A stretch of DNA of 54,245 nt, taken from the NCBI GenBank assembly GCA_964522405.1, contig CAZFTR010000007.1, forward strand, positions 1 through 54,245, given 5' to 3'. Source of the stretch: an uncultured Gammaproteobacteria bacterium (lineage in GTDB: Bacteria > Patescibacteriota > Patescibacteriia > Magasanikbacterales > UBA922). The notes below the pieces were generated by a model that saw only the letters and a list, made by a program, of their open reading frames with translations, was not told the origin of the DNA and searched no databases. Positions 9,094 through 48,020 of this stretch are shown here, in pieces. Made by a program: the position numbers and the translations under genes. The first letter of the stretch is position 1; each line of letters opens with the position of its first letter.

Positions 9094-9841
9094 TTAGAAA
9101 CTATAGTGGGTCGGGTGCTCGTTGTTGTTCCATTCGTGACCCACCGGGGCGTTGTTGCCCCTTGGGGTCATTCGGGCGGGTTCCGGAAGTGCTTCGGCAA
9201 GTACTCGTCCTCACAGCCGGTGACGCCGGTGACCCTCTCCGGGATCTCCCAGGTGGTCATGGTCTGGCCGTCGTGGTACTTGGACCAGGTCTGCTTGGCC
9301 CGGAAGCTGCGCACGCAGCCCTTGTTCCCGAACTTGGTGGAGATGGCGTAGATCTGAGCCCAGATGCGCTGCTCGCCGTCGAGGAACGTCTTGTAGACCG
9401 AGACCTCGATCTGGTCCCAGCGCAGGGCATGCTCCTCCGGGATCTCGAAGACCGCCTTGCGCACGAAGCTCTCGTCCTCGACGATCTTGCCCATGATGCG
9501 CTGCAGACCCGTGGAGTTGGGGCTGTCGCACTTGTCCGGGCAGATCCAGAGCTCGGCGGTCTGCAGGTTGTCCCGCAGGAAGCTGATGTCGCTGCCCACG
9601 TAGTGCAGGTCGAACTTGGGGTTGCGCCAGTAGTCGTACTCCGGCGTGGAGGGCTCCGTCGTCTCGACGGTGCTCAGAACGGGTTGCGTCTGCTCGGAGC
9701 TGACGCGGTTGGGGATGGAGGAAACGGGGGAATCGATCATGTCCTTCTTGGCACACGCGGAAACCGCGAGAGCCAGGAGGAGAGTGATGAGAATTCTCAA
9801 GACTGTCTTTCCTTCCAACGAGCACCCACTATAATTTCTAA
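9094..9841. mobile_element. GC-rich islet 1: 748-bp unit bounded by 23/28-nt terminal inverted repeats, carrying one lipoprotein gene and no transposase
   Basis: TTAGAAACTATAGTGGGTCGGGTGCTCG (9094-9121) was compared with the reverse complement of CGAGCACCCACTATAATTTCTAA (9819-9841). 22 of 23 aligned positions match, with one 5-nt indel. The interior is about 63% G+C (38/60 counted at 9241-9300) against 16/60 at 9901-9960. Confidence 0.55.
9168..9800 (-). CDS. Hypothetical lipoprotein encoded in GC-rich islet 1
   Basis: The frame has almost all G/C third positions. A TTG start at 9800 gives MRILITLLLALAVSAC (lipobox VSAC), with SD GGAAGGAAAG 6 nt upstream. A GC-rich hairpin (9138-9169) sits at the stop. 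The track ORF extends to 9860 through AT-rich DNA. No family recognised. Confidence 0.7.
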   Translation of the reverse strand: MRILITLLLALAVSACAKKDMIDSPVSSIPNRVSSEQTQPVLSTVETTEPSTPEYDYWRNPKFDLHYVGSDISFLRDNLQTAELWICPDKCDSPNSTGLQRIMGKIVEDESFVRKAVFEIPEEHALRWDQIEVSVYKTFLDGEQRIWAQIYAISTKFGNKGCVRSFRAKQTWSKYHDGQTMTTWEIPERVTGVTGCEDEYLPKHFRNPPE

Positions 9842-9863
9842 TTAAGTTGTAAAAGAACAAAGA

Positions 9864-9892
9864 AATATAGCATAAAAAAAGACTTTTGTCAA
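9864..9892 (-). promoter_or_regulatory. Promoter-like TTGACA-17-TATATT pointing into islet 1
   Basis: Minus strand: TTGACA (9892-9887), 17-nt spacer, TATATT (9869-9864). The surrounding TCTTGACAAAAGTCTTTTTTTA recurs upstream of islet 4. Confidence 0.45.
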
Positions 9893-9938
9893 GATAACAA
9901 CTTGCTTTTTTGGCTTAAATAAGCTAATATATGTCCAT

Positions 9939-10907
9939 ATGTGGATAAATAAGTTTTTAGAAAACAAGCAAAAAATCCTGGCACTTTCACCAATGGCAGA
10001 TATGACTGATTCTGCCTTTTGTCGCGTAGTCAGAAATATTGGTGGTGCTGATATTGTATTTAGAGAAATGGTTAGCAGTGAGGCTCTTATTCGAGATAGT
10101 GAAAAAACTCTCAAAATGACAGATTTTCACGAAGAAGAGCGACCAATTGTTCAGCAAATTTTTGGTGCAGATCCTCAGAAAATGGCTCAGGCTGCTAGAA
10201 TTATTCTCGACAGAAATTCTCCTGAGGGAATTGACATAAATATGGGTTGCCCAGTCCAGAAATTAACCAGTCAATTCAACGGCTCAGCTTTGATGAAAGA
10301 TCCAGAACTAGCGGGTAAAATAGTAAGGGCTGTAAAAAAGGAGATAGGAGATGTGCCTTTGTCAGTGAAAATTAGACTTGGTTGGTCAGATCCGGATGAT
10401 TTTAAAACTTTTATTCCAGTCCTGGAAAAAGCTGGAGCAGATCTAATTACAATTCACGGCAGAACTCGAGTCCAGGGATATTCTGGCACAAGTGATTGGG
10501 AGAGAATCAGACAGGCAAAAGAACTTGCAACTGTTCCAGTTCTTGCCAATGGAGATATCCACGAGCCACATCAAGTGGCAGAAGCGCTGGAGCAAACCGG
10601 ATGCGATGGAGTTATGATTGCTCGGGGAGCTCTGGGGAATCCCTGGTTTTTCAAGCAAGCTCTTGACCCGGAATTTAGAGTTAGTCTAGAAGAGAGAATA
10701 AAAATAATACTTGATCACGCAAAGCTACATATTGAAGAATACGGAGAAAAAGCTCTAGTTACATTCCGAAAACATCTGGCTTGGTATTTTAAAATAAATA
10801 AACTTGGTTTTGAGCTTGAGGGAATTAAGCAGTTTAGAGCTAGATTGGTGCGGGTTTCGACAATTGATGAGTTGGCTGATATACTAAATGAGCTTTTAGA
10901 TAGGTAA
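9939..10907 (+). CDS. dus: tRNA-dihydrouridine synthase
   Basis: 322-aa ORF. LSPMADMTDSAFCRV, INMGCPVQK and the HGRT/ANGDI motifs are typical of the Dus family. Confidence 0.9.
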   Translation: MWINKFLENKQKILALSPMADMTDSAFCRVVRNIGGADIVFREMVSSEALIRDSEKTLKMTDFHEEERPIVQQIFGADPQKMAQAARIILDRNSPEGIDINMGCPVQKLTSQFNGSALMKDPELAGKIVRAVKKEIGDVPLSVKIRLGWSDPDDFKTFIPVLEKAGADLITIHGRTRVQGYSGTSDWERIRQAKELATVPVLANGDIHEPHQVAEALEQTGCDGVMIARGALGNPWFFKQALDPEFRVSLEERIKIILDHAKLHIEEYGEKALVTFRKHLAWYFKINKLGFELEGIKQFRARLVRVSTIDELADILNELLDR

Positions 10908-10945
10908 TATATGAAACCAAAAGAAGAGAGAAAAATTTCATAAAC

Positions 10946-10976
10946 AAAAAACTCATAGAAATCCTATGAGTTTTTT
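10946..10976. terminator. Bidirectional rho-independent terminator between convergent dus and the GT2 gene
   Basis: AAAAA-ACTCATAG-aaatc-CTATGAGT-TTTTT: an 8-bp stem flanked by A and T runs. Confidence 0.6.
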
Positions 10977-10986
10977 AATAGAGATC

Positions 10987-11685
10987 TTATTTTTTCCCAA
11001 ATTTCAACTTAAACATAACCACAAAAAACTCAATTATGTCTTTTCTGCTTAGTTTTGATTTTCCTTCTTGGCGATCTACAAAAACTACTGGAACTTCTGC
11101 AACTCTAAATCCCATTTTTTCAGTTCTATAGAGCATTTCTTCTTGAAAAGCATAGCCATTGCTTTTAATCTTATCCAGTTCTATTGATTGCAGTACTTTT
11201 CTACTAAAACATCTAAATCCTGCAGTGACATCTCTGGTTTTTAATCCGAGAAACATTTTTGAAAACCACATGGCTCCGTTGCTCATAAATTTTCTGGTCC
11301 AACCCCAGCCGACTACCTGTCCACCGGGAATTTTTCTAGATCCGATTACCAGATCTGCGTTTTCTGCAGCTCGTAACATCTCCTTTAGATCTGCTGGATC
11401 ATGAGAAAGATCGGCATCCATTTCATATATATAATCAGCTCCGAGTGATAATGCTTTTTTGAATCCGGCTATGTAGGCTGAGCCTATTCCTTGTTTTGAT
11501 TCTCTTTCAAGTATATGAATAGGAAAATTCTGAGAAAGTTTTTTTGCTATTTCTGCTGTACCGTCTGGTGAATTATCATCTACTACTATTATTTCAAGAT
11601 TTGGTATTTCCTGCTGAAAAACCCGCTTGATTAGAATTTCAATGTTTTTTGCTTCGTTGTAGGTGGGGATAATTATTGTGGGCAT
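10987..11685 (-). CDS. Polyprenol-phosphate mannosyl/glycosyl transferase (GT2, Dpm1-like)
   Basis: 232-aa ORF. IIIPTYNEAKNI, VVDDNSPDGTAEIA and MDADLSHDP motifs. The C-terminal segment FVDRQEGKSKL is typical of polyprenol monophosphomannose synthases. Confidence 0.85.
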   Translation of the reverse strand: MPTIIIPTYNEAKNIEILIKRVFQQEIPNLEIIVVDDNSPDGTAEIAKKLSQNFPIHILERESKQGIGSAYIAGFKKALSLGADYIYEMDADLSHDPADLKEMLRAAENADLVIGSRKIPGGQVVGWGWTRKFMSNGAMWFSKMFLGLKTRDVTAGFRCFSRKVLQSIELDKIKSNGYAFQEEMLYRTEKMGFRVAEVPVVFVDRQEGKSKLSRKDIIEFFVVMFKLKFGKK

Positions 11686-11711
11686 GAAAAGTAGAAAGTA
11701 AAAATAGAAAG

Positions 11712-11859
11712 TGTCATCTCGAGTGAAGTCTGCTGAAAAGCAGGTAATCGAGAGATCTCTGTCTATATAGCTAAGGTAAAATTTTTATTCATTCGAATAT
11801 TATATTGAAAAGGATCTCTCAACTTCATTTTTCTTTCAGAAAATTCCGCTCGAGATGAC
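11712..11859. repeat. MITE/REP-like palindromic element, copy B
   Basis: Termini are TGTCATCTCGAG ... CTCGAGATGAC. The left half TGTCATCTCGAGTGAAGTCTGCTGAAAAGCAGGTAATCGAGAGATCTCTGTCTAT matches the reverse complement of copy A (4925-5058). Confidence 0.7.
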
Positions 11860-11865
11860 TGTTAG

Positions 11866-13203
11866 TTATACCACTCCAATGTAAGTCTCAGGCCGCAGCC
11901 CAAGCAGTTTTTGTTTTTCTGCTGGAGTTATATCTAACTCTTCAATTATTTCTCGAACAGATATCTTATCTAGTATTTTACCATGAGTTAGGTTTTTTAT
12001 CTTGTTATAAGCCTGTATATCTCCATTTTTGCGCATAATTGTTTGAATTGCCTCTGCCAAAACCTCCCAGTGTTCGCTAAGTTCTTGTTTGAGTTTCTGT
12101 TGGTTTATTTCAAGTTTTTCTATTCCTTTTAAAATATTTTTTATACTAATTAAACAGTGGGCTAGGGCAACGCCCTGGTTTCTTATTACTGTACTTCCTG
12201 ATAGGTCACGCTGCAGACGCGAGATTGGCAATTTTTTTGCTAAGAAAATTAAATTTGCATTAGCAATTCCGGCATTTCCCTCTGCATTTTCAAAATTTAT
12301 AGGGTTCACTTTGTGGGGCATGGTGCTTGATCCAACTTCATTTTCCTTTTTCCTTTGAGTAAAAATTCCTCGAGCTATATACATCCACATATCCTGACAT
12401 AGATCTATTAGAATTGTATTGGTTCTGGAGATTTTATGGTATGACTCAGCCAATGAATCATATGAATTTACTTGAGTGGTGAATAAAATATTTTCCAATC
12501 CAAACGACTGTATGAATTTTCGAGAAAAACTAACCCAGTCGATTTCAGGATAAGCTATGGCGTGAGCTGCCCAGGTTCCGGTTGCGCCATTTAATTTTGC
12601 TTGAAATTTCTGTTCTCTGAGTTGGTTGGTTTGCCTGACAATTCGTGAATAAAAAACCATAAATTCTTTACCAATTGTTGTGGGAGTAGCGCTTTGACCG
12701 TGGGTTTTGGAAAGTAGAGGAGTTTTGGTATATTTTTTTGCTAATTTTAATAGTTCTGTTTCTAGTTTATCAATTTCAGGAAAATAAATATCATGCAGCG
12801 CATTTTTCCACATCAGTGTATAGGCTATATTATTAACATCCTCAGAAGTAAGGGCAAAATGTAGAAAACTGATGAAGGGTTTAAGTGGAGTTTTTTCTAA
12901 TTTCCTTGCTAGAAAAATTTCAACAGCCTTTAGATCATGATTTGTAGTTTTTTCTATTTCTTTTACTTCAAGTGCGTCTTGGTCTGTGAAATTTTTATGA
13001 AAAAATCTCAGTCCCTCCCGGTTAATAGGGGAGAGGGTTGGTAATTCTTCTAGTTCCGACTCACAAAGTGCAATAAAATATTCTATTTCAACAAAAATCC
13101 GGTATTTAATCAGAGCTTTTTCTGAAAAATAATCACTCAACTCCTCTGTGTATGAATTATAGCGACCATCTATTGGTGAAATTTTATTTAACTCTTCAAT
13201 CAT
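11866..13203 (-). CDS. purB: Adenylosuccinate lyase
   Basis: 445-aa ORF. The PIDGRY start region, the SSTMPHKVNP signature and the fumarate-lyase-family layout all fit. Confidence 0.92.
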   Translation of the reverse strand: MIEELNKISPIDGRYNSYTEELSDYFSEKALIKYRIFVEIEYFIALCESELEELPTLSPINREGLRFFHKNFTDQDALEVKEIEKTTNHDLKAVEIFLARKLEKTPLKPFISFLHFALTSEDVNNIAYTLMWKNALHDIYFPEIDKLETELLKLAKKYTKTPLLSKTHGQSATPTTIGKEFMVFYSRIVRQTNQLREQKFQAKLNGATGTWAAHAIAYPEIDWVSFSRKFIQSFGLENILFTTQVNSYDSLAESYHKISRTNTILIDLCQDMWMYIARGIFTQRKKENEVGSSTMPHKVNPINFENAEGNAGIANANLIFLAKKLPISRLQRDLSGSTVIRNQGVALAHCLISIKNILKGIEKLEINQQKLKQELSEHWEVLAEAIQTIMRKNGDIQAYNKIKNLTHGKILDKISVREIIEELDITPAEKQKLLGLRPETYIGVV

Positions 13204-14505
<1,302 letters not shown>

Positions 14506-15351: not shown

Positions 15352-15629
15352 AATTTTGGCTAGTTTTAGCTAATTAGTGTAGATGTATAATAGCAGGGGA
15401 TGGGTTTTAGTTCAAGTCTGATCCCGATAGTTTTAAATAATATATAATTAATTTTATCATTTCATTTGAGCAAGGGCAATATTAGCTTAAGTTTGTTTAT
15501 AAGAGCTTTTATATATTAATATTTACAATTTCAGCATATTGTCGTATAATTGAGCTGTTAAAAAGTTTTTTTATGATATATTGGCTTTTGAATTTAAATA
15601 TATCATCCTAAAATTGAATTAGCTAAAAA

Positions 15630-21016: not shown

Positions 21017-21018
21017 AG

Positions 21019-21089
21019 CTCGGAGACAGGGATTCGAACCCCGATAGTTGGTACCAGAAACCAAAGTCCTACCATTAGACGATCTCCGA
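21019..21089 (-). tRNA. tRNA-Gln (anticodon CUG)
   Basis: Hand-folded cloverleaf. Acceptor UCGGAGA/UCUCCGA with the Gln-typical U1-A72 pair and G73. Anticodon loop UUCUGGU, T-loop UUCGAAU, 4-nt variable loop. No encoded CCA. Confidence 0.85.
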
Positions 21090-27596: not shown

Positions 27597-30173
27597 TTAT
27601 AAACTGGCTTCAATCATGTCAGTTTTGGCAGTCCCTTCGGACTCTCCAAGTTTGGTTCTTTCCATTATCTCTGCTTCAACAATACTTCGATCTCTTCCGT
27701 ACTTTAGTCGAGATAATTGTTTTATAGCGTCAGCAAGTTCGCGATTACCTTCTTTTGGCGGATAAGAAAGCATGTTAAATGGTTTGGTAGTTTCATTGTC
27801 AATAATCATCTTGGTATAAAAAGAAAAAGGTGGGGGATTGAGTAAGTCATAGGCTCCAAAAGTTGGTGCAAATTCTTTGGCAAGAATATCAGTATCATCA
27901 GGTCCAACTCGACCAATACACATGGTACCCACATTACCGAGTACTGCGTCTTTGACCTCGGTTTTTTGACCTTCAACCAGCTGACCCATATATTGATGGG
28001 CAATAGTTAGATCCAGTTTGTATTTACGTGCCTCAGACAAAATAATAGCTATTGAGTCTGTAACTACATTTTGGAACTCATCAATATATAGATAAAAATC
28101 TTTTCTTTCTTCTTTTGACAGTTCTGCTCTTGCCATGGCAGCCATTTGTAGTTTTGCTACTACTATTAGGCCGATTAAGTTAGCATTAACCTCACCGGTT
28201 ACACCTTTGGCCAGATTTACAAGTAGAATTTTTTCCTGATCCATTACTTCTTTGAAACTAAAACCTGATTTTTGCTGTCCCATAATATTTCTCATCATTT
28301 CATTTTCAACAAAACGTCCAACTTTTGATATTAGGTAACCAAGCATCTCAGATTTGTGAAAATCACTAGTTTTAGCCATTTCCTTTTCCCAAAAAGCTCT
28401 CACCACCGGATCCTTCAATTTTTTCAGATATTTTTTAACATAATTATCATCTGTAAACATTCTAGGAATATCAATGATGGTTCCTGTGTCGCTCAAGTCA
28501 GCCATAAGAGTCAACATGACGTTTCTCATATTGTGTTCAAACATGGGGCCGATAATTTCAGGTGGGAATAGTTTATAGAAGATTGAAATCATCTCTTGGA
28601 CTGCAAAATCTTTTTGATCATCAGTTTTTGCCTCGAGCATATTCAAACCAATTGGACGTTCCATGTCTGAAGGATTGAATACTATAACATCGTCAGCTCG
28701 GTTTTTGGGTACATGAGCAAGTACATCTTCTACTAAATCTCCATGTGGATCAATCAGACAAACACCCTTGCCATTTTGAATATCCTGAATAATCAGATTT
28801 GATAAAAATACTGATTTTCCAGTTCCAGATTTACCAATAACATAGAGATGTCTCCTTCTGTCAGCTTCTTTCATTCTAATTTCTGTGTCTGTTCCGCGGT
28901 ACTTTACATGCCCAAGAAGAAGGCCTGAATCTGGAAGGTTTGTTGGTGGTGGGGCAGTTCTACCTGACAGCCATTTTATATTCGGTGTTTCTGTTGAATG
29001 AAGAGGTAAGTGCCACATACTGGCCATTTCTTCGGTGTTAAGGATTACAGATCTATTATCATGAAAACTTCTATATATAAAGTCCCTAATTATAGTTTTT
29101 TGATTTCTAGGAATAGTAATAGAAAATTCGTTTCCATAGCGATAGAGATTATATTGGCTAAACGAATTTACAATATTTTCCAGATTTATTTTGGCCATTT
29201 CTTCTTGATCTGAGACACTTACAATTCTGATAGTTGTACCAAGTCCGCCCTTTGCCAACTTCTCTTCAATTCCTTTAAGCATCTCTTCTTCCATGGCAGA
29301 AAGTTGATATCTGTTGTCTTTGGTAATGTCTTTTGGATCTTTGGGTACAAATAGTTCTTTAGTAGTTTTGGCGCTGGTACCTAGGGCTTTGGTAAAAAAT
29401 GTTTTATGAATAACATTTTCAAATTTTTCTCCTTTTTTGACTTCACGGACCACTTTTACACCTTTCCTTCGCCATTTTCTAGGTGCTGATCGCACAACAA
29501 ACTGAATTGCCGCTGAGCTGTTATTTTCTCTAATTCTAGCAAGAGCATTGAGAAGTGCGGATAGAGGATCTGATTCACTTTTTTTGTATGATTTAAAAGG
29601 GAAAATGTGAATTTTTTTTGAAGTTAGATTTGCAGAAACTATTTTGCTGTGCTCTCCGAATATATTGTAATCGCCAATTTCTTCTATCTGTGCATATGGA
29701 TATTGAGCATGTATCTGTTGTTCAATAAATTTCTGCACTCGATGGGGGACAGCGACGTAGAAATAAATAAGCCCTTCATGTACTACTAATTCAAATGCAA
29801 TATGATCATTTCTTCCTCTAAACCATGAACCCATACCACGTTCAGCTCTAAGGCCGGCAATAGTTGAGAAAAAAGTTTCTGTAATTCCAATTTCTTCCTT
29901 TATTTGTTCAAGTCGATCCTCGGAAGATCCCTGCCCACTGCTTTCTGATTTTTTTTCCTTTGGTACTTGAATTTGTAGAATTACTCTATCAAAAGCCTTG
30001 CTAGCTTTGAAAATATTTTTAGTAAAGATTCTAACTATAAAAAGCAAAACAAATACCAACAAAATTCCAACAATAATCAGCAATAAACTAAAAAAAAGCT
30101 CTGAATAGACGGCAGTAGCATTTTGAAAGCTATTTCCTCCACCTGCATTTATTGCAAATTGGAATAAAAACAT
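27597..30173 (-). CDS. VirD4/TraG/TraD-like coupling-protein-type P-loop ATPase with N-terminal TM segment
   Basis: 858-aa ORF with an N-terminal hydrophobic helix. Walker A is VIGKSGTGKSVF and Walker B is FYLYIDEFQN. The overall layout matches proteins with a type IV secretion DNA-binding domain. Confidence 0.7.
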   Translation of the reverse strand: MFLFQFAINAGGGNSFQNATAVYSELFFSLLLIIVGILLVFVLLFIVRIFTKNIFKASKAFDRVILQIQVPKEKKSESSGQGSSEDRLEQIKEEIGITETFFSTIAGLRAERGMGSWFRGRNDHIAFELVVHEGLIYFYVAVPHRVQKFIEQQIHAQYPYAQIEEIGDYNIFGEHSKIVSANLTSKKIHIFPFKSYKKSESDPLSALLNALARIRENNSSAAIQFVVRSAPRKWRRKGVKVVREVKKGEKFENVIHKTFFTKALGTSAKTTKELFVPKDPKDITKDNRYQLSAMEEEMLKGIEEKLAKGGLGTTIRIVSVSDQEEMAKINLENIVNSFSQYNLYRYGNEFSITIPRNQKTIIRDFIYRSFHDNRSVILNTEEMASMWHLPLHSTETPNIKWLSGRTAPPPTNLPDSGLLLGHVKYRGTDTEIRMKEADRRRHLYVIGKSGTGKSVFLSNLIIQDIQNGKGVCLIDPHGDLVEDVLAHVPKNRADDVIVFNPSDMERPIGLNMLEAKTDDQKDFAVQEMISIFYKLFPPEIIGPMFEHNMRNVMLTLMADLSDTGTIIDIPRMFTDDNYVKKYLKKLKDPVVRAFWEKEMAKTSDFHKSEMLGYLISKVGRFVENEMMRNIMGQQKSGFSFKEVMDQEKILLVNLAKGVTGEVNANLIGLIVVAKLQMAAMARAELSKEERKDFYLYIDEFQNVVTDSIAIILSEARKYKLDLTIAHQYMGQLVEGQKTEVKDAVLGNVGTMCIGRVGPDDTDILAKEFAPTFGAYDLLNPPPFSFYTKMIIDNETTKPFNMLSYPPKEGNRELADAIKQLSRLKYGRDRSIVEAEIMERTKLGESEGTAKTDMIEASL

Positions 30174-32407: not shown

Positions 32408-33120
32408 GTGCCTGCGCCGTCCGCCCCGAAGAGAGAACAGCGCCAGGCTCGTCGTCGTCGGGGCGAAGGGCATGTTGGAAGTGGCATCACTCGGTGACGA
32501 CCTCCACGTCCTCCTTGCGGGTGAAGCTCCAGCGCAGCGAGAAGCGCTCGCCCTCCTCCGTGCTGTAGTTGACCACGAAGGAGCTGTACTCCTCCCAGGC
32601 GCGGTGGAAGATGGCCTGCAGAGCCAGTCGCTCGTCGCGGTCACCATGCTTGCTGATGTGCGCGTTGGCGTCGCCGCTGTTGTGGGACACACAGCTGAGC
32701 ACATCGCCGGTTTGCAGACGGAATCTGCGTATCCGCTGGTTGAGATCTCTGCGCATCACCTCGGCCAGGGCCTTGGCTCCGCCCATCTCACCCAGGAAGG
32801 TGAAAATGGTGACCCGACCGTCGGTGCTGGTATGCACCAGCGCGCCGTAGTTGTGGCCGAGAGCTGCTGAGATCAGCGCAGCCTGGAAATAGGCCGCACT
32901 TCTGGTCATGCGCGAGACCTCGAAGCGCGCGTCGGCATCGAGGAAGATGCGCCGACCCCGTCTGTCGTAGCAGTGAACCAGACCCAGCCCCTGGTCATTG
33001 CCTCCGGAAGTGTGCTCCATGCGCAGAATCCGCTCGGCGTTGTCTTCAGCGAGAGCAGGTACTGCCCGAATAGTAAGCATTATGCTTTCTCCTGCGGGAA
33101 AACCCGCTCAGTCAACTATG
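32408..33120. other. GC-rich islet 2 (compositionally foreign segment with one ORF)
   Basis: There is an abrupt AT-to-GC switch at both ends, and long shadow ORFs on several frames. It is flanked by the imperfect direct repeat AGTATTTGAAAAGTTT (32352-32367) / AGTATTTGCAAGTTT (33142-33156). Confidence 0.6.
32487..33080 (-). CDS. Hypothetical protein encoded in GC-rich islet 2
   Basis: 197-aa ORF (MLTIRAVPALAEDNAERILRMEH...) in the frame with G/C-rich third positions. ATG start, with SD AGGAGA 7 nt upstream. No family recognised. Confidence 0.65.
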   Translation of the reverse strand: MLTIRAVPALAEDNAERILRMEHTSGGNDQGLGLVHCYDRRGRRIFLDADARFEVSRMTRSAAYFQAALISAALGHNYGALVHTSTDGRVTIFTFLGEMGGAKALAEVMRRDLNQRIRRFRLQTGDVLSCVSHNSGDANAHISKHGDRDERLALQAIFHRAWEEYSSFVVNYSTEEGERFSLRWSFTRKEDVEVVTE

Positions 33121-38971: not shown

Positions 38972-39000
38972 TGGACAAAAGACATATTTTCTGCTAATTT
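38972..39000 (+). promoter_or_regulatory. Promoter-like TGGACA-17-TAATTT pointing into islet 3
   Basis: CTGGACAAAAGA (38971-38982) resembles the CTTGACAAAAGA module upstream of islet 4. The -10 element is weak. Confidence 0.35.
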
Positions 39001-39016: not shown

Positions 39017-39543
39017 GGGGCCGGTATGCAAATTCCGGCAAGGTTCGATAAAAGGGAGGAGCTGATGAAGCTCGAATACGACGGTAGCATCTTCGAGATC
39101 ACTGAGGACGCGCATGCGCGTGCTTCGGCTCGGGGAGAGCCGGTCTACGTGGGAGGAATCGGCTTCCTTCGCATGACCACAGACGGGATCACGGAGTTCC
39201 CGATCATCGAGGCCAAGGAGGCTGCTGACATCGAGAAGTTGGATGGACTGGCGCTCATCGAGCACAGCAATCGCTTCTTCGCCATCCTGGAGGGCGAGGC
39301 CGACAACGACGTCAACGTGCTGCTCGTGAACGGAATCGTGGTCTGCGTCGAGCGCTGGAACGATGGTGGTACTGGGATCCTGCAAGCCCAGGACTACCGG
39401 CGGGTCTTCCTGCACAGCGGCGACTACATCGGCAGGGCTGACTGAGATCGAGAGCAGCAGAAGTGGGGGTGGCACATGCCTGTCGTGGCGCCCTGACTCA
39501 AGGACGCTGCTTCCGTGGGGCGCGAAGACACGCCCCAGACCTC
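39017..39543. other. GC-rich islet 3
   Basis: The composition switches from AT-rich to GC-rich after the rpoD terminator. It holds one GC3-rich ORF. The 3' hairpin is TGGGGCG-cgaagaca-CGCCCCA (39516-39537). Confidence 0.6.
39065..39445 (+). CDS. Hypothetical protein encoded in GC-rich islet 3
   Basis: 126 aa (MKLEYDGSIFEITEDAHARASARGEPVYVGG...). ATG preceded by SD GGGAGGAG. The track ORF starts 35 codons earlier in AT-rich DNA. No family recognised. Confidence 0.65.
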   Translation: MKLEYDGSIFEITEDAHARASARGEPVYVGGIGFLRMTTDGITEFPIIEAKEAADIEKLDGLALIEHSNRFFAILEGEADNDVNVLLVNGIVVCVERWNDGGTGILQAQDYRRVFLHSGDYIGRAD

Positions 39544-39585: not shown

Positions 39586-39622
39586 AAAAAAGAAAAGACT
39601 CTTGACAAAAGAGTCTTTTTTT
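39586..39622. terminator. Terminator-like hairpin in the AT-rich spacer between islets 3 and 4
   Basis: AAAAAAG-AAAAGACTCTT-gaca-AAGAGTCTTT-TTTT. The loop and 3' arm overlap the -35 of the islet-4 promoter-like element. Confidence 0.5.
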
Positions 39623-39630
39623 AATATTTT
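39602..39630 (+). promoter_or_regulatory. Promoter-like TTGACA-17-TATTTT pointing into islet 4
   Basis: TTGACA at 39602-39607 and TATTTT at 39625-39630. TCTTGACAAAAGAGTCTTTTTTTA (39600-39623) matches 9894-9873 (minus strand) apart from a 2-nt indel. Confidence 0.45.
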
Positions 39631-39635
39631 ACTTG

Positions 39636-40147
39636 CAGAATTCGTTCGGCCGTCAAGCGGTCGATTTTGAGACTTGGTGCAGTACCTTGGAGGTGGCTGT
39701 GATTCGCAAGTTGGGTACTAATGTCTACGTTGAGGAGAGTGTGGTCAGTCGGCACCTGCGCTTGATCAGCGCTTTTCCGAGCTCTGAGGAGCGCTGCCGG
39801 AGCTGGCGCATGAGCAGGACAGTGAGCTGGTTCGTCTTTCGCGGGCACTACTTCAGCTTCCGTCTCAAGCATGCCTGCCATGGCCTGCTCATCCGGTTGC
39901 CGCTGGTCGAAGAAGACGGCAGCGAGATCATCGTCCAGGTGACCGGCTGGAAGCAGCATGAGTTCCGCCGCAGTCCTAGCACTCGTCGGCGCAACCTCAA
40001 TCCCTGGATCAAGCCGGCCGGTGTCCAGCAGGTCGAGATCTCGGAGGTCGGCGACTAGTACACATTCCGTCCGTCGCCTCCACCAACTTCATCACCAGGT
40101 CTCACAGGGGGAGGGGGGGCGATTCAATCAGCCCCTCCGAGACCAAC
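39636..40147. other. GC-rich islet 4
   Basis: The segment is GC-rich. It ends with a strong hairpin GGTCTC..GGAGGGG...CCCCTCC..GAGACC (40098-40144), followed by AACTATGTACTTTTATT. Confidence 0.6.
39699..40058 (+). CDS. Hypothetical protein encoded in GC-rich islet 4
   Basis: The plus frame has roughly 80% G/C third positions, against roughly 55% for the antisense 112-aa ORF (hand tally). A GTG start at 39699 is preceded by GGAGG. The track ORF starts at TTG 39633. The product is 119 aa (IRKLGTNVYVEESVVSRHLRL...). No family recognised. Confidence 0.55.
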   Translation: MIRKLGTNVYVEESVVSRHLRLISAFPSSEERCRSWRMSRTVSWFVFRGHYFSFRLKHACHGLLIRLPLVEEDGSEIIVQVTGWKQHEFRRSPSTRRRNLNPWIKPAGVQQVEISEVGD

Positions 40148-40177: not shown

Positions 40178-40205
40178 AAAAAAGAACCACAGCTGGTTCT
40201 TTTTT
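40178..40205 (-). terminator. Rho-independent terminator of sodX
   Basis: AAAAAA-GAACC-acagct-GGTTC-TTTTTT. The same GAACC/GGTTC stem occurs in the terminator at 42744-42772. Confidence 0.7.
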
Positions 40206-40542: not shown

Positions 40543-40545
40543 AGC

Positions 40546-40995: not shown

Positions 40996-40996
40996 A

Positions 40997-41206: not shown

Positions 41207-41224
41207 AAATTATTTTCTTAATAA

Positions 41225-41818: not shown

Positions 41819-41973
41819 AAATATAAAAATAAATAAATACCCCGCTATTATATTTGTTCTTTGTTTAGAGGTCAAGTCTGGAAAGCTTTCAATTCATTAT
41901 CCACATATTGAGCTTTTTATTAAATTTTGTTAGAATATGTACATTAAATTACTTATTTTTATTCAAGCAAAAT

Positions 41974-42729
41974 ATGTCAGAAGAACACAAGAAGTCAGCA
42001 GGTCTGGGAGCATTTTCGCCTGCGCAAACTTTTTCAATGGGAATTATCGGTGGAATACTGGTACTTTGTACTATTGGATTTTTTATTATGCTAGGAATCA
42101 TGATGAATAGTGATGGTGATGATTCAGCAAAGAAGCCAGCCAATGTAGTGCAGGTAGACAAGGGAAATGCTCAAGCCCCAACTCCACAAGTAAATGGAGA
42201 TATTGTGGTTAAGCCGGTTGATGAAAAAGTAGATCATATTCGTGGAAAGAAGAACGCAAAAGTAACAATTATTGAATATTCAGATTTTGAATGTACATTT
42301 TGTGGAAGATTTCACCCTACCATGAATCAAATTTCAGAAAAATACAGCGACGATGTTAGGTGGGTTTATCGACATTTTCCTCTAGAGAGTATTCATCCAA
42401 AAGCCAGGTCTTTGGCAAATGCCAGTGAATGTGCTGCAGATCAGGATATGTTCTGGGAAATGACTGATGCCATATTTGAGGATACCGGTGCCAGTTCAGC
42501 AGAAGTATATGCTACAAAAATTGGCTTGAACCTAACAAAATTCAACAAATGTCTTGCAGATAATAAATTTGACAGTAAAGTTAATGATGATATGCAGAGC
42601 GGTTTAGCAGCAGGCGCTAGAGGTACACCATATTCTATAATTCTTGGGCCTGATGGAGAAACAGTTCCACTTTCTGGCGCCCAGCCACTTAGTGCAGTAG
42701 ATGCTGCTGTGGCTCAGTTCCTGAACTAA
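41974..42729 (+). CDS. DsbA-like thioredoxin-fold thiol-disulfide oxidoreductase, membrane anchored
   Basis: TM helix, then IIEYSDFECTFCGRFHPT (CxxC) and a GTPYSII cis-Pro-loop region. The start is set at MSEEHKK (41974). Confidence 0.8.
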   Translation: MSEEHKKSAGLGAFSPAQTFSMGIIGGILVLCTIGFFIMLGIMMNSDGDDSAKKPANVVQVDKGNAQAPTPQVNGDIVVKPVDEKVDHIRGKKNAKVTIIEYSDFECTFCGRFHPTMNQISEKYSDDVRWVYRHFPLESIHPKARSLANASECAADQDMFWEMTDAIFEDTGASSAEVYATKIGLNLTKFNKCLADNKFDSKVNDDMQSGLAAGARGTPYSIILGPDGETVPLSGAQPLSAVDAAVAQFLN

Positions 42730-42743
42730 TAGTAAATAAAATT

Positions 42744-42772
42744 AAAAAAGAACCTGATAAAGGTTCTTTTTT
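42744..42772 (+). terminator. Rho-independent terminator of the DsbA-like gene
   Basis: AAAAAA-GAACC-tgataaa-GGTTC-TTTTTT. Confidence 0.75.
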
Positions 42773-42807
42773 AATACACCTTTAAATATTTTCACAAATA
42801 TGCAAAA

Positions 42808-43257
42808 GGGTTGAGGGCGTCGCGCGTGTCGCCGCCCTCTGAAGTCGCCAAGAGGTACATCGCAGAACCGGCCACCGCGAATGTGGGTGGTGTCGGTCGT
42901 CGATCTTCTCTCTAGGCGTGGGTCGAGTGTCCGACGTCGCCGTCGCTCAGCTTCTTCATGGTGCTGGCGATGAAGACCAGGAGCGGGTTGTTCTTGAGGT
43001 CGACTTTGCCGGGGAACGTGATGTTCCAGGTGTCCGGCTTGCCATGCCGCTCGATCAGCTCCACCTTGTTGCTCCTGTGCAGCTCGTTGAGCTGCTGCAG
43101 CACCCAGCCGGCGTTGATGTTCAGGCTCGGGTCGATCTGAAGCAGGCTCTTGCAGAGCTCCTCAGCAGTCTGTGGATCGTTGCCGTCAATCAACAGAAGC
43201 AGGATCATGGTTTTCTTCATCTTTTCCCTCCAGGGAAAGAGCAGTTGTGTAGACGAG
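42808..43257. other. GC-rich islet 5
   Basis: A GC-rich segment between the convergent DsbA-like and clpB terminators. The 3' hairpin is GAGGGCG...CGCCCTC (42813-42839), followed on the minus strand by AACCCTTTTGC. Confidence 0.6.
42912..43220 (-). CDS. Hypothetical protein encoded in GC-rich islet 5
   Basis: 102 aa (MKKTMILLLLIDGNDPQTAEELCKSLLQIDPSLN...). ATG at 43220 is preceded by SD GGAGGGAAAAG. The track ORF starts 15 codons earlier. No family recognised. Confidence 0.6.
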   Translation of the reverse strand: MKKTMILLLLIDGNDPQTAEELCKSLLQIDPSLNINAGWVLQQLNELHRSNKVELIERHGKPDTWNITFPGKVDLKNNPLLVFIASTMKKLSDGDVGHSTHA

Positions 43258-43284
43258 TTAATCATATTTTTTACTACTTGTCAA

Positions 43285-43320
43285 TAAAAAACAGTCTCTA
43301 AATCAGAGACTGTTTTTTTA
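43285..43320 (-). terminator. Rho-independent terminator of clpB
   Basis: AAAAAA-CAGTCTCT-aaat-CAGAGACTG-TTTTTTT: a 9-bp stem flanked by A and T runs. Confidence 0.75.
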
Positions 43321-43331
43321 ATTTTTAGAAA

Positions 43332-45974
43332 TTATTTAAGTACAATTTTATTTTTTTCAATATCTACATCTACTGTTGCGCCTGCATTTATCTTTCCTTC
43401 TATAATTTGCATAGCAAGTGGATCAAGAAGTTCTGTCTGAATCACACGCTTAAGTGGTCGCGCACCTAGATTTGGGTCATAGCCATGGTTTGCTAACCAG
43501 TCTTTTGCGTTTGTACTTATATTTACTTTAATTTTTTGTTTTTCAAGTCTTGAAGCAACTTTTTCCAATTGAAGATCAACGATTTGACGAATTTCCTTTT
43601 TATCCAGTGGTTGGAATATAGTGATTTCATCAATTCTATTGAGAAATTCCGGTTTAAATCTCTCTTTCAACGCTTCCATTACTTTCTCTTTCATTTTGTT
43701 AGTTTTTTGTTTAGTGCTAGCTTTACCATTTTTCTTTTCTTCAAATCCAAAATCACCTTTGCGACCCATATCCATAATAGTATCACTGGCCAGGTTGCTG
43801 GTCATAATGATAACTGTATTTTTGAAATTTACTTTTCTTCCTTTGGCATCTGTTAGATGACCATCTTCAAGAATTTGGAGCATGATATTGAAAACATCCG
43901 GATGGGCCTTTTCAACTTCATCAAGTAAAATTACGGAATATGGTTTACGTCTGATGATTTCAGTTAATTGACCGCCCTCATCAAATCCAACATACCCGGG
44001 TGGAGAGCCGATCATTTTACTCACTGCATGTTTTTCCATATATTCGGTCATATCTACTCTGACTAGAGCCTCTTCATCATTAAACATAAATTCTGCTAGA
44101 GTTTTAGCTAGTTCTGTTTTTCCAACTCCGGTTGGTCCAAGAAAGATAAAAGAACCGATTGGACGTTTTTCTTCTGAGATACCGGCTCTATTTCTTCTAA
44201 TTGCGTTTGAAATCGTAGTTATAGCTTCTGTTTGACCAATAACTCTCTTGCTCAGCTCATCTTCCATTTTAGCCAGTTTTCGAGTTTCATCCTCGAGCAT
44301 CTTGGATACAGGAATTCCAGTCCAGCGAGCCACAACTGCGGCAATGTCTTCATTGGTTACTTCTTCTTTGAGAATTCCTTTTTTCTTTTGTAGATTTGCC
44401 AGTTTTTTCTCCAGGCCAACAATGGCTTCTTCGGTTGTTGGGATTTTCCCATATCTGATTTCTGCAACTTTTTGAAGATCGCCTTTTCTTTCCATTATTT
44501 CTGCTTGCTGCTTTAGTTTATCTATTTCTTTTTTATATTCACGAATTTTAGTAATAATTCCTTTCTCATTTTGCCATTGAAGTTCAAGGGCCTTGGTTTT
44601 TTCTTTAAGATTTGCTAGATCTTCTTTTAATTTTTTCTCCCGGTCTTTTGAATCCTGATCTGTTTCTTTTTTAAGTGCGTTAAGTTCAATTTCAATCTTC
44701 ATGATCTTGCGTTTCATCTTGTCGAGATCATCAGGCATAGAATCAATTTGCATTTTAAGGGCTGAGGCAGCTTCATCTATTAAATCAATTGCTTTGTCTG
44801 GTAAATATCTATCACTGATATATCTTGAAGATAGCTCAACTGCTGAAACAAGTGAGGGATCAGTGATGCGCACACCATGATGAACTTCATATTTTTCTTT
44901 TATTCCACGAAGTATGGCAATAGCATCTTGCTCATCTGGTTCACTTACTAGTACAGGTTGAAAACGTCTTTCAAATGCAGCGTCCTTCTCTATGTGTTTC
45001 TGATATTCTTTTAGGGTGGTTGCACCAACCATGCTCAGCTCTCCGCGGGCCAGTCCTGGTTTTAACATATTAGAGGCATCAACTGCTCCGTCAGAGCTAC
45101 CAGCACCGACAATACTGTGCAACTCATCGATAAAAAGTATAATTTTCCCTTTTGCTTCTGTAATTTCTTTTATAACTGCCTTAAATCTCTCTTCAAATTC
45201 TCCTCTAAATTTAGTTCCAGCAATAAGAGATCCAATATCCAATGAAATAATTTCTTTGTCTTTTAGATTTTCAGGGACATCTCCATTTACAATTCTCTGG
45301 GCTAATCCTTCAGCAACTGCGGTTTTTCCAACCCCAGGTTCACCAATCAGTACTGGATTATTTTTTGTTCTTCGAGAGAGTACTTGCATGACTCGTCTGA
45401 TTTCATCATCACGTCCTATGACTGGATCAAGTTTTTCCTTTTGGGCTTGTTCTGTAAGGTTTAATCCGTATTTTTCTAGAGCATTGTATTTGTTTTCAGG
45501 TTGTGGGGAATCGACTCTCTGATTTCCACGAATGCTGGTTAGGGTTTTTAAAATATCACCAAATTGAACTGCTTGAGAAGCAAGAGCATCGCTAATTGGA
45601 TTTTTATTTATAAGAAAAGCGAGTAGAATATGTTCTACACTTATGTACTCATCTTTCATTTTTTTTGATTCTTGCTCAGAAGCCTGTAAAATATACATTG
45701 AGGCTTGACTAAGTAAAACCTGACCAACACCGGTAGGTGGAGCAGAAACCTGTTGACGGGGTATAGAGTTAATAAGATCTTGTATAGTTTCCTGGAGCTG
45801 TACAAGGTTTACATTTAATTTTTTTAAAACCGAAACAACCACCCCTTCGTCTTGATCAAGTAATGCCATAAAAATATGAGGTGGATCTACTTGGGGATGA
45901 CCATTTTCATTTGCTATTAGTTGTGAATTTTGAATTGCTTCTTGTGATTTATGCGTAAAGTTTTGTGGAAGCAT
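43332..45974 (-). CDS. clpB: ATP-dependent chaperone ClpB
   Basis: 880-aa ORF with two AAA+ modules ([15 protein letters not shown]; [15 protein letters not shown]), a long coiled-coil middle domain, and a Clp N-domain. Confidence 0.95.
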
Positions 45975-45986
45975 AATATGTATAAT

Positions 45987-46706
45987 TTATCTAGTAATAT
46001 ATTTTGTTACAAAATACCTAATCATCTGTTGAAATGTTTCAGAAGATCTAAATTCTCTTTTGTGGCGCAATGCAACCTTTTCTTCATTGTATAGTTCTTC
46101 TGCTCTTTTTAAATAGGCTAATGCTTTTCTTTTTTTTGCTCCTTCAAGCTCAGATAAGATAGTGTTGTGTAGTTCAAAAAAATTAAAATCCTTTTTAGCT
46201 CTTCCATATCCATCATCTGACCAGCCATTAAAAGCATCTATATATTGTATTCTCCCTTTATCGTCAACAATATAATTATTGAACGACCTATCGACGCCCA
46301 AACCAGCGTTTAATAATTTATTTTTAATAGAGTGATGTCCAGGTCTTGGCTCCTCATACATGTTTCTACTTGATTCTTTATCAATGTTGACTCTCTCATT
46401 TATTGTCTGTGGATTAGGCTCTGCAGCAGAGACAAGATGTATATTTGGTACATTCTCAGGAAAAAGCAAATACGCAATTTTTCCAAGGTAATACTGTACT
46501 TTAACAAATCTTTCACTTCGATAAATATCTTTATATTCAGTATCTTTAGAAAAATGCGGCCCTTCAAAAGTCTTTATTACTTTTTTTGGGTTATCATCTG
46601 AATATACTTTTTTTTCTTCTCCAGCACCTAACTCCTGATTATGATTAATTTTTGACCTTGGCATTTCTGGCATATATTTATAATGACTTCGGAAGTTTAT
46701 TAGCAC
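45987..46706 (-). CDS. Hypothetical protein, possibly an atypical kinase-like fold
   Basis: 239-aa ORF. GTG at 46706 or ATG at 46673 (MPEMPRSK) is the possible start. There are weak G-loop/VxK-like (LGAGEEKKVY..VIKTF) and DFG-like (IQYIDAFNGW) stretches. The family call is low confidence. Confidence 0.6.
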   Translation of the reverse strand: MLINFRSHYKYMPEMPRSKINHNQELGAGEEKKVYSDDNPKKVIKTFEGPHFSKDTEYKDIYRSERFVKVQYYLGKIAYLLFPENVPNIHLVSAAEPNPQTINERVNIDKESSRNMYEEPRPGHHSIKNKLLNAGLGVDRSFNNYIVDDKGRIQYIDAFNGWSDDGYGRAKKDFNFFELHNTILSELEGAKKRKALAYLKRAEELYNEEKVALRHKREFRSSETFQQMIRYFVTKYITR

Positions 46707-46726
46707 TCATAGTACTTGAGTGCTAA
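46700..46726. promoter_or_regulatory. Perfect 10-bp inverted repeat (candidate operator) in a divergent spacer
   Basis: TTAGCACTCA-tagtact-TGAGTGCTAA, with no adjacent T-run. It overlaps the longest possible start of the 45987..46706 ORF. Confidence 0.4.
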
Positions 46727-46795
46727 TAACTATAACATACTGGAAAAAAATGTCAACTAGTGATAAACTAGCGTTATTATAGCATAAATTTAGTC

Positions 46796-47551
46796 ATGAT
46801 ATTGCTCGGAATACGAATAGATAATCTGTCAAAAAAAAAGGCGATTGAAAAAATTGTTAATTTTTTGGACGGTGGACAACATAAAATTTTTACTCCAAAT
46901 CCTGAAATGTTGGTTGATGCAAGTAGGGATGATTATTTTAGAGAAGTTCTTAATAGTGGCTCACTTAATATTTGTGATGGTTCTGGTATAAAATTAGTTT
47001 CAAAAGAAAAAATACAGAGAATTCCAGGTATTGATTTCATGTTAGATATTTGTCAGGTTGCAGAAAGTAAGGGTAAGAGTATTTATCTACTTGGATCTGG
47101 AAGTAGAGAAGTGCTTGATAAAACTATTGTTAATTTAAAATTAAAATTTACGAATTTACGAATAGCCGGCTCAAATCAAGGTCCAAAAATAGAAATGCAG
47201 AAAGAAAATGAAAGAATAGTGAATAAAATAGACCAGAATCAGAACGAGCAACTAGTTGATGATATAATAATGGCAGCTCCTGATATATTATTTGTTGGAT
47301 TTGGTCACTCTAAACAAGAAAAATGGATTGATGAAAATTTATCACAACTTCCAAGTATAAAAATCGCTATGGGAGTTGGTGGATCATTTGATTATATTGC
47401 CGGTAAAATAAAAAGAGCACCAAAATTAGTGCAGAGAATAGGATTTGAGTGGTTGTGGAGATTAATTCATCAGCCAAGTCGAATTAAGAGAATTTATAAA
47501 GCAACAGCAGTATTTATGTTTAAGGTTTTTTTTACAAAAAAAGCTCTATAA
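46796..47551 (+). CDS. WecB/TagA/CpsF family glycosyltransferase
   Basis: 251-aa ORF. FTPNPEMLV, GIDFM, FVGFGHSKQEKWI and RAPKLVQRIGFEWLWRLIHQPSR motifs. Confidence 0.85.
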   Translation: MILLGIRIDNLSKKKAIEKIVNFLDGGQHKIFTPNPEMLVDASRDDYFREVLNSGSLNICDGSGIKLVSKEKIQRIPGIDFMLDICQVAESKGKSIYLLGSGSREVLDKTIVNLKLKFTNLRIAGSNQGPKIEMQKENERIVNKIDQNQNEQLVDDIIMAAPDILFVGFGHSKQEKWIDENLSQLPSIKIAMGVGGSFDYIAGKIKRAPKLVQRIGFEWLWRLIHQPSRIKRIYKATAVFMFKVFFTKKAL

Positions 47552-47554
47552 AAT

Positions 47555-48020
47555 GTGTGACCCTCGCGTTCGTGCGAACCGAGGGTCGGGTAGCGGTGAT
47601 GGCGTCGACTGGGCCGGTTGTGTTGTTCAGGCCACGAGGCTGAGCGCGGCGAACGGAATACGGGAACCCGTGTCCTGATCCACGATGCAGTCTTCGATCT
47701 CGGCCTCGCCAGTCTCCTTGCGGAAGAACATGACGAAGTCAATGTTGAAGCTTACGCCGTTCATGGCGCAGATGCGCCCGTGGATGCGAACCCGAACCCC
47801 GTGTTGGTTCTGGTTGAGCTCGTAGATCACCAGCTTGCCAGGCCGATGCCACTTGCCGTTGCTGTCTCGGCAGCCAGTGGTCATACGTCCGAAGTAGACC
47901 TGAGCCATGGGCTCGAGATCATGCGGAATTGCCAGCACATGATGCGCCGGCAATCGGCGTACGAGTGCATCGCCGATTTCCTCCCTGGTATACATTGTTG
48001 CGGACCCTCCGTGTCCTCTA
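47555..48020. other. GC-rich islet 6
   Basis: The GC-rich segment begins 4 nt after the WecB-like stop. The hairpin is GACCCTCG-cgttcgtgcgaac-CGAGGGTC (47559-47587). Confidence 0.6.
47627..47995 (-). CDS. Hypothetical protein encoded in GC-rich islet 6
   Basis: 122 aa (MYTREEIGDALVRRLPAHHVLAIPHDLEPMAQVYFGRMTTGC...). ATG at 47995 is preceded by SD GGAGGG. The track ORF starts at TTG 48031. No family recognised. Confidence 0.6.
   Translation of the reverse strand: MYTREEIGDALVRRLPAHHVLAIPHDLEPMAQVYFGRMTTGCRDSNGKWHRPGKLVIYELNQNQHGVRVRIHGRICAMNGVSFNIDFVMFFRKETGEAEIEDCIVDQDTGSRIPFAALSLVA

Follow-up and report, generated by a model that had tools for sequence, protein, structure and literature searches.

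Phage morons, a concept associated with Juhala and Hendrix, consist of a single open reading frame (ORF) with its own promoter and terminator, located between genes that are adjacent in relatives. Their base composition differs from that of their neighbors, and many of them encode lipoproteins or proteins whose function is unknown. GC-rich islands in AT-rich genomes are also on record as non-coding RNA genes, which Klein, Misulovin and Eddy are said to have described in 2002. Here we analyze contig CAZFTR010000007.1 of assembly GCA_964522405.1, an entire NCBI contig of 54,245 bp (hereafter the window), in which six GC-rich single-gene islets, numbered I1 to I6, lie between the genes of an AT-rich chromosome.

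The islets resemble phage morons in that each consists of a single ORF with a promoter-like site and an odd composition, and in that the flanking genes are adjacent in relatives for I2, I3 plus I4, and I6. Unlike morons, they sit among chromosomal housekeeping genes with no phage structural or integrase genes in 54 kb, their proteins match no PHROG or phage record, their composition is shifted toward high GC, and there are six of them in 39 kb. With integron cassettes and clusters of attC sites lacking integron integrases (CALINs) they share a unit size of 0.5-0.8 kb, a single ORF (mostly ORFans, genes without recognizable homologs) and a structured 3' element. Some are also arranged in tandem, as I3 and I4 are, and as are a pair with conserved 3' elements at a locus of another genome, L088. 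The islets differ from these systems in having no integrase IntI, no common 3' repeat and no attC cores (regular expression RYYYAAC...GTTRRRY, islets plus or minus 120 nt, both strands); furthermore, every islet has its own promoter-like site, and most are dispersed singly. Like GC-rich non-coding RNA islands, they form sharp GC-rich stretches in AT-rich intergenic DNA behind AT-rich promoters, but they show codon periodicity, contain intact ORFs and have no Rfam match.

Bacteria of the Candidate Phyla Radiation (CPR), or Patescibacteria, have tiny genomes and rely on other cells, which raises the question of how they come by new functions. The window appears to show six accessory genes added singly between core genes, each with its own expression signals. 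Horizontal gene transfer is reported to be frequent in Patescibacteria, with single-gene transfers coming mostly from other Patescibacteria (PMC12455944). The islets share with those transfers the phylum and the transfer of individual genes; the sections of that report considered here do not mention GC-rich single-ORFan islets limited to about one transcript, or recurrent sites 3' of rpoD and clpB. The searchable literature yielded no account of this pattern and no paper on the sequencing runs. ORFan genes acquired horizontally, like moron-like units, are known kinds already. What is unusual here is the direction and size of the GC shift, the density of the islets and their strict one-gene, transcript-sized limits, as well as the total lack of homologs, the intermediate protein composition and the recurrence at the same CPR spacers.

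Six GC-rich coding blocks

The mean GC content of the window was 0.364, with a pooled value of 0.610 within the six blocks versus 0.348 elsewhere. Individual blocks were 450-723 bp long with a GC content of 0.59-0.62, which placed each of them 6.3-8.3 standard deviations above background windows of the same length, whose maximum was at most 0.46. At every border GC content jumped from ~0.22 to 0.5-0.7 within 60 nt. Together the six islets make up ~6% of the contig, all within 39 kb of core chromosome. Within each block, one frame showed a GC content at third codon positions (GC3) of 0.75-0.93 and had its lowest value at second positions (GC2), while GC3 of host genes was ~0.25. The values at first, second and third positions (GC1/GC2/GC3) ranged from 0.53/0.42/0.93 in I1 to 0.62/0.39/0.75 in I6. 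Each block held one ORF, of 210, 197, 126, 119, 102 and 122 amino acids (aa) for I1 to I6; the I4 ORF would be 141 aa long if started at the TTG at 39633, and the I6 ORF 134 aa with an upstream TTG. These computed values agree with the original prediction, which had described six abrupt high-GC segments with one ORF each in the GC3-rich frame. Its counts of 38/60 G+C at 9241-9300 and 16/60 at 9901-9960 are exact, and the discontinuity is real. The blocks are coding: a structured non-coding RNA gene is ruled out by the GC3 > GC1 > GC2 periodicity and by intact ORFs with Shine-Dalgarno sequences, and an Rfam scan of the window gave no islet match at gathering or permissive thresholds.

The I1 protein begins with a lipoprotein-type signal peptide (LLLALAVSAC, ending LAVSAC) and is a predicted lipoprotein, the sole functional call made for the six. 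The I5 protein is rich in Lys, Asn, Ile and Leu and in this respect resembles host proteins. Gene callers can miss such genes. Automatic calling on the independent contig that carries I1 (L003) preferred a 218-aa shadow ORF on the forward strand (window 9189-9845, L003:778-1434) over the I1 frame. Because the callers took this opposite-strand ORF, the true I1 protein is missing from protein collections, and such miscalls may conceal similar genes in other AT-rich genomes.

The islets in independent assemblies

Logan contigs, which are independent assemblies of runs SRR8146440 and SRR8146441, span all 12 junctions at 100% identity. That the islets are an artefact of assembly, binning or construction, with the contig being a chimera, was the alternative raised at the outset, and we give it practically no credence. 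The abrupt composition change is the one observation that speaks for it. Against it, de Bruijn-graph contigs of two runs reproduce the six islets with their flanks at 100% identity, six of six blocks are placed exactly between genes, and like islets occur in metagenome-assembled genomes (MAGs) that come from many studies and different assemblers. We conclude that the blocks are real; the artefact is refuted as far as assemblies can show.

The sole contig end departing from the window (L203) was considered as an empty-site strain variant; its divergent sequence is Illumina adapter. No empty-site strain variants were found, including in a metagenome scan with host DNA. Two further contigs, L200 and L201 from runs SRR31802801 and SRR31802802, are 100% identical to window positions 7435-8863 and end short of I1. 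Since identical host DNA is found in different accession series, the same strain recurs in other samples.

Insertion between intact host genes

The contig belongs to Candidatus Magasanikbacteria (Patescibacteria/CPR) by its ClpB, RpoD and CysS, proteins in which the nearest species representatives are 75-84% identical. The flanking genes are all intact and encode, among others, MsrB, Dus, PurA, PurB, FolD, DnaX, CysS, PyrH, DnaG, RpoD, signal peptidase, nickel superoxide dismutase, peroxiredoxin, DsbA, ClpB, WecG, SpoU methylase and GltX, so that the claim of strictly intergenic placement without truncation of any host ORF stands. The spacers holding islets are gene boundaries beside host terminators or promoters. 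Domain searches of all ORFs in the 54 kb detected no integrase, transposase or recombinase, as had been stated originally, and no reverse transcriptase or phage gene either.

In the closest relative (MAG SRP090828_co3_39, loci L085 for rpoD and L145 for cysS), rpoD is separated from the S26 signal-peptidase gene by 54 nt, compared to 1295 nt in the window, where I3 and I4 intervene. The distance between the holin-like gene and cysS is at most ~100 nt there versus 903 nt in the window (I2). In over 15 relatives among the Magasanikbacteria, the wecG and SpoU genes overlap or are separated by at most 33 nt, versus 540 nt in the window (I6). The blocks are absent from these spacers, and judged by synteny I2, I3 plus I4, and I6 are insertions relative to the closest relative. 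Empty sites had been proposed as a check on insertion, and relatives provide them for these four islets. At the I5 site, synteny breaks 3' of clpB.

Known classes of mobile DNA were considered and rejected. A transposable element or miniature inverted-repeat element with a passenger gene does not fit, with a bracketing inverted repeat only at I1, no target-site duplication above chance and no transposase. A classical genomic island (>10 kb, tRNA-adjacent, with integrase and direct repeats) does not fit blocks of 450-723 bp with no adjacent tRNA and no integrase. A retron, diversity-generating retroelement or group II intron locus was dismissed for want of a reverse transcriptase domain in the window and of any Rfam hit.

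One further gene may belong with the spacer insertions. A 239-aa ORF at 45987-46706 (reverse strand), between clpB and wecG, has no Pfam domain, lies behind a promoter-like site at 46729-46756 (11/12 consensus positions) and has no match in those relatives' loci where clpB and wecG are matched neighbors. Its composition is AT-rich and host-like, and for this reason single-gene spacer insertions here may not all be GC-rich.

Orphan status of the products

An exhaustive phmmer search with the six proteins joined, against 1.84 billion representatives of ~15 billion proteins, returned self matches only, namely the five called window proteins. The searched proteins include all assemblies of the same sequencing runs, and each called islet protein forms a singleton cluster. 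No match for the islet proteins was obtained in Pfam, PHROGs, NCBIfam, PADLOC or PDB sequences, by tblastn against phages and plasmids, or in viral and metagenome contig scans, and word-indexed protein searches gave no homolog. By these sequence comparisons the islet products are ORFans, which agrees with the initial remark that none of the six was recognizable. Single-sequence AlphaFold2 models reached a predicted local distance difference test score of 39 for I2 and 57 for I5; Foldseek with the low-confidence I5 model gave winged-helix-like matches, all of them non-significant. A role as orphan immunity or adaptor proteins is pure speculation.

Expression signals and shared flanking modules

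The GC-rich block extends in all six cases from ~25-65 nt before the start codon to just beyond a GC-rich 3' hairpin, and its size and limits are therefore those of one transcription unit. Consensus-like sigma70 sites (10-11 of 12 positions) lie in AT-rich DNA just outside I1, I4 and I6; promoter-like sites for I2 and I3 were recognized by inspection, and that of I5 is weaker, with a weak -10 element. All Shine-Dalgarno strings and hairpins quoted in the original prediction are present, and its inward-pointing promoters outside five of the six islets could be recovered at the strengths just given. The 3' hairpins are followed by short T-runs offset by 2-12 nt, with none at I1, and a consensus terminator scan called none of the six hairpins as a terminator. 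These features support a view of each islet as a putative, individually equipped expression cassette.

The promoters of I1, I3 and I4 can be aligned over ~31 nt including the spacer (CTKGACAAAAG..TTTT.TGCTA.ATTT, z = 4.9-6.9), a module not seen at strong host promoters. Near-identical AT-rich hairpins (AAAAAAGAACC...GGTTCTTTTTT) lie ~30 nt past the 3' ends of I4 and I5, where they double as terminators of the host signal-peptidase (S26) gene and dsbA. The hairpin core, AAAGAACC-loop-GGTTCTTT, occurs in two exact copies in the window (40181-40202 and 42747-42769), with none expected. Comparison of the six islets at the DNA and protein levels revealed no similarity between ORFs and no common end sequence or recombination site. 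The label of a family, which had been applied to the six, was dropped accordingly; what some of them share is just short AT-rich promoter or hairpin modules. No direct repeat beyond chance was found at the borders of any islet that would mark a target-site duplication. An enrichment of TTGACAAAA at the islet borders (12 observed versus 1 expected) was not used as evidence because promoters are concentrated in intergenic DNA in any case and every border is intergenic.

I1 is bracketed by an inverted repeat, and no such repeat was found at the other five islets. Its arms straddle the border between AT-rich and GC-rich DNA and are predicted, in both minimum free energy and centroid folds, to form a 26-bp helix between the two untranslated regions (UTRs) that would close the whole transcript (predicted fold z = -2.9).

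Similar islets in other CPR genomes

We scanned ~1.6 Mb of fetched CPR and non-CPR loci for similar blocks. GC-rich islets of 300-1100 bp were found at many Patescibacteria loci, and the non-CPR loci had none. Many of the CPR islets hold one high-GC3 ORF, often for a lipoprotein (L018, L028, L030 and L032). Two spacers are shared with the window: one islet lies directly 3' of clpB in L018, and two lie directly 3' of rpoD in L088. None of these islets is homologous to those of the window.

The two tandem cassettes 3' of rpoD (L088:5105-6300) contain unrelated ORFs of ~85 and 131 aa, one of which is an ORFan with no homolog in a word-indexed protein search. Around these ORFs the cassettes are alike: an AT hairpin is common to both, as are the promoter (TATACCAAT.ATATTGACAAAAC) and a 3' element, rich in GC and closed by GTCGAAGGAGGG/CCCTCCT.CGAC, that is restricted to that one genome. 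Three exact 22-nt matches of the element elsewhere, including in Streptomyces, were discarded as chance occurrences of a ribosome-binding site plus ATG with unrelated flanks. Read on its other strand, the element contains AAGGAGG-N7-ATG. Mini-ORFs of 10 and 27 codons start there, downstream of a conserved promoter-like site, and could represent an antisense or small-peptide partner.

A different kind of GC-rich block, ~400-650 nt long, is conserved 3' of clpB at three other loci (L024:5598-6151, L025:10301-10990 and L029:12672-13309). Its codon-position GC is flat, it has no Rfam match, and compensatory changes occur in 24 of 103 predicted pairs across the three sequences. The flat profile means that not every CPR GC islet codes. 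This block may be an undescribed structured RNA of other Patescibacteria lineages and may belong to the non-coding island kind.

Source of the islet genes

Pooled islet proteins contain 8.0% Arg and 3.8% Lys versus 3.8% and 8.2% in the host. This pooled usage leans toward that of GC-rich genomes, from which a long residence of the islet genes in GC-rich DNA would follow. We compared them at matched GC3 (~0.8) to 124 small genes taken from those fetched loci that belong to ordinary high-GC bacteria. GC1 was 0.60 in the islets versus 0.68 in the comparison set (p = 0.002), and the share of Gly, Ala, Arg and Pro (GARP) was 0.25 versus 0.35 (p = 4e-4), with a higher share of Phe, Tyr, Met, Ile, Asn and Lys (FYMINK) in the islets. 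The same GC1 and GARP deficit was found in 14 islet ORFs of other CPR genomes (p = 1.6e-5 and 2e-5). For GC-rich Patescibacteria, represented by genes at L163 and L109 (GC 0.57), the values were GC1 0.62, GC2 0.40, FYMINK 0.22 and GARP 0.28, and the islets, with GC1 0.60, GC2 0.40, FYMINK 0.24 and GARP 0.25, are similar to them. The putative source that fits best would be a GC-rich CPR lineage or the mobile elements of one, and such a source agrees with the mostly Patescibacteria-to-Patescibacteria single-gene transfers reported in PMC12455944. That acquisition was recent may be suggested by the unameliorated GC3.

Direct transfer from a conventional high-GC bacterium on which the episymbiont lives, the donor suggested originally, is disfavoured, and we regard it as quite improbable. 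The codon choices CTG/CTC, GTC, CGC, CCG, AGC and GGC are typical of high-GC bacteria, codon-usage distance to Sphingomonads and Myxococcota (0.47-0.49) is less than that to the sampled GC-rich CPR, and I2 has a composition ordinary for a ~60% GC genome. The islet hairpins with their weak or offset T-runs also point this way; such T-runs at hairpin terminators are common in high-GC bacteria. However, none of the six proteins has a homolog in ~15 billion, even with assemblies of the same runs included, GC1 and GARP differ at matched GC3, the GC1 of I1 and I5 lies no higher than the 1st percentile, and random fragments of a host would seldom be single complete genes.

How the islets arose

We favor, at about an even chance, separate horizontal gains of moron-like single-gene cassettes from an unsampled GC-rich gene pool. 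Each cassette would consist of a sigma70-type promoter in AT-rich DNA followed by a GC-rich block of about one transcription unit, with a short leader containing the Shine-Dalgarno sequence, a single ORF and, at the end of the 3' UTR, a GC hairpin, in that order. The six would have been gained one by one by horizontal transfer into intergenic spacers of the Candidatus Magasanikbacteria chromosome, from a pool whose proteins would be closer to those of GC-rich Patescibacteria or their mobile elements than to those of ordinary high-GC bacteria. Entry could have occurred by DNA uptake and illegitimate recombination, with no recombinase in cis, after which deletion bias would trim each insert to the selected gene. 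The products may have been retained as accessory cell-envelope or interaction factors, a role suggested by the lipoproteins encoded by I1 and by several islet genes of other CPR genomes. If plain horizontal transfer is the explanation, then a large unsampled GC-rich gene pool would feed these bacteria.

Several observations weigh against separate gains of this kind. Random uptake does not explain why six blocks should each correspond to one intact gene with transcript-shaped limits, nor why three promoters have a 31-nt module in common, nor why the L088 cassettes combine the same flanks with different ORFs; recurrent spacers are also poorly explained. I1 and I5 combine host-like amino acids with GC3 of ~0.9, a combination hard to expect from any ordinary donor. 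In their choice among G/C-ending codons, the islets come no nearer to the one GC-rich CPR lineage sampled than to groups of proteobacteria. Finally, searches of protein, phage, plasmid, viral and metagenome sequences found no donor sequence of any kind, and for that reason 'foreign' is a statement about composition and synteny.

The same cassette features could instead point to a dedicated Patescibacteria capture system, in which hotspots close to terminators would receive transcript-sized GC-rich ORFs, each placed behind AT-rich promoter and terminator modules that are portable. Such a system might resemble integrons, target hairpins or work by retro-insertion of mRNAs, and its existence would add a new kind of gene capture. 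We consider it unlikely, if worth entertaining: one-transcript blocks, the I1/I3/I4 module missing from host promoters, the conserved hairpin, promoter and 3' element around unrelated L088 ORFs, and the different islets 3' of rpoD and clpB in different genomes all favor it, whereas the six have no common end sequence, lack attC-like cores and show target-site duplications at no more than chance level, and the 54 kb contain no integrase, transposase or reverse transcriptase. Moreover, the hairpins common to I4 and I5 also terminate the S26 gene and dsbA, TTGACAAAA promoters occur widely between CPR genes, and the L088 3' element is limited to one genome. We are a shade more doubtful of the broader claim that Patescibacteria have an undescribed way of acquiring genes as interchangeable single-gene cassettes, scattered or arrayed, without attC or IntI, whose source could even be RNA. 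A GC drive acting in place on particular transcription units, by targeted A:T-to-G:C hypermutation or biased gene conversion, would saturate synonymous and non-coding sites with the protein held by selection. This would account for I1 and I5, where GC3 of 0.89-0.93 coexists with host-like GC1, GC2 and GARP (0.17-0.21, host 0.20), for GC-rich blocks that match transcription units behind promoters that remain AT-rich, and for the GC1 and GARP deficit in the 14 islet ORFs of other CPR genomes. Nevertheless we judge it very improbable, since at relatives' spacers the genes are missing outright rather than AT-rich, the exhaustive protein search found no AT-rich homolog, and the pooled Arg and Lys contents are shifted to the GC-rich type. 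No such GC-driving mechanism is known in bacteria.

Coordinates of the islets, their signals and the independent contigs (window positions; GC1/2/3, GC content at codon positions 1, 2 and 3)
Feature	Position	Strand	Basis or remark
I1 block, GC 0.62, z = 8.3	9106..9828	-	GC scan; both junctions in Logan contig L003
I1 ORF, 210 aa, TTG start after GGAAGGAAAG, GC1/2/3 0.53/0.42/0.93	9168..9800	-	ORF and codon-position GC
I1 promoter-like site, TTGACA-17-TATATT with TG, in AT-rich DNA	9864..9892	-	11/12 consensus positions
Inverted repeat, left arm, predicted in 3' UTR of I1 mRNA	9094..9124		18 nt at 94% and 12 nt at 100% complementary to right arm
Inverted repeat, right arm, predicted in 5' UTR of I1 mRNA	9816..9841		complementarity to 9094-9124
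I2 block, GC 0.62, z = 8.3, between divergent cysS and holin-like gene	32408..33120	-	GC scan; spanned by L204
I2 ORF, 197 aa, ATG after AGGAGA, GC1/2/3 0.64/0.45/0.79	32487..33080	-	ORF and codon-position GC
I2 GC-rich 3' hairpin, 17-nt arms	32416..32471	-	inverted-repeat scan
I3 block, GC 0.61, downstream of rpoD	39017..39543	+	GC scan; spanned by L202
I3 ORF, 126 aa, ATG after GGGAGGAG, GC1/2/3 0.64/0.37/0.81	39065..39445	+	ORF and codon-position GC
I3 promoter-like site, TGGACA-17-TAATTT, CTGGACAAAAG module	38972..39000	+	inspection, module alignment
I3 GC-rich 3' hairpin	39516..39538	+	sequence
AT-rich bidirectional terminator-like hairpin between I3 and I4; loop holds I4 -35	39590..39622		terminator/promoter scan
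I4 promoter-like site, TTGACA-17-TATTTT	39602..39630	+	10/12 consensus positions
I4 block, GC 0.60	39636..40147	+	GC scan; spanned by L202
I4 ORF, 119 aa, GTG after GGAGG, Arg-rich, GC1/2/3 0.58/0.45/0.80	39699..40058	+	ORF and codon-position GC
I4 GC-rich 3' hairpin	40098..40144	+	sequence
I5 block, GC 0.59, between dsbA terminator (42741-42775) and clpB terminator (43286-43318)	42808..43257	-	GC scan; spanned by L002
I5 ORF, 102 aa, ATG after GGAGGG, GC1/2/3 0.55/0.31/0.89	42912..43220	-	ORF and codon-position GC
I5 GC-rich 3' hairpin	42813..42839	-	sequence
I6 block, GC 0.60, between wecG and SpoU methylase gene	47555..48020	-	GC scan; spanned by L001
I6 ORF, 122 aa, ATG after GGAGGG, GC1/2/3 0.62/0.39/0.75	47627..47995	-	ORF and codon-position GC
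I6 promoter-like site, TTGACT-17-TAAAAT	48032..48060	-	10/12 consensus positions
I6 GC-rich 3' hairpin	47559..47587	-	sequence
Logan contig L003	8412..11855		covers I1 and both flanks; 100% identical
Logan contig L204	31107..34561		covers I2 and both flanks; 100% identical
Logan contig L202	38820..41814		covers I3, I4 and flanks; 100% identical
Logan contig L002	41826..46496		covers I5 and both flanks; 100% identical
Logan contig L001	45524..48800		covers I6 and both flanks; 100% identical

Other features of the window

A VirD4/TrwB-like type IV coupling protein of 858 aa is encoded at 27597-30173 on the reverse strand. This DNA-translocation ATPase gene is syntenic beside cysS across many Patescibacteria and belongs to the core neighborhood, not to a mobile element. 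Two tRNAs were called (21018-21089 and 53676-53759), neither of which is adjacent to an islet and only one of which passes Rfam; even a permissive threshold gave no match to any further RNA family. The second, an 84-nt tRNA-Trp (CCA) called by ARAGORN on the reverse strand, scores below the Rfam gathering threshold and could be either a false call or a tRNA that is atypical or contains an intron. An internal repeat (6841-6958 and 7435-7550, 86% identical over ~118 nt), seen as a secondary BLAST hit, lies inside a 1004-aa ORF containing DUF4430 (5065-8079).

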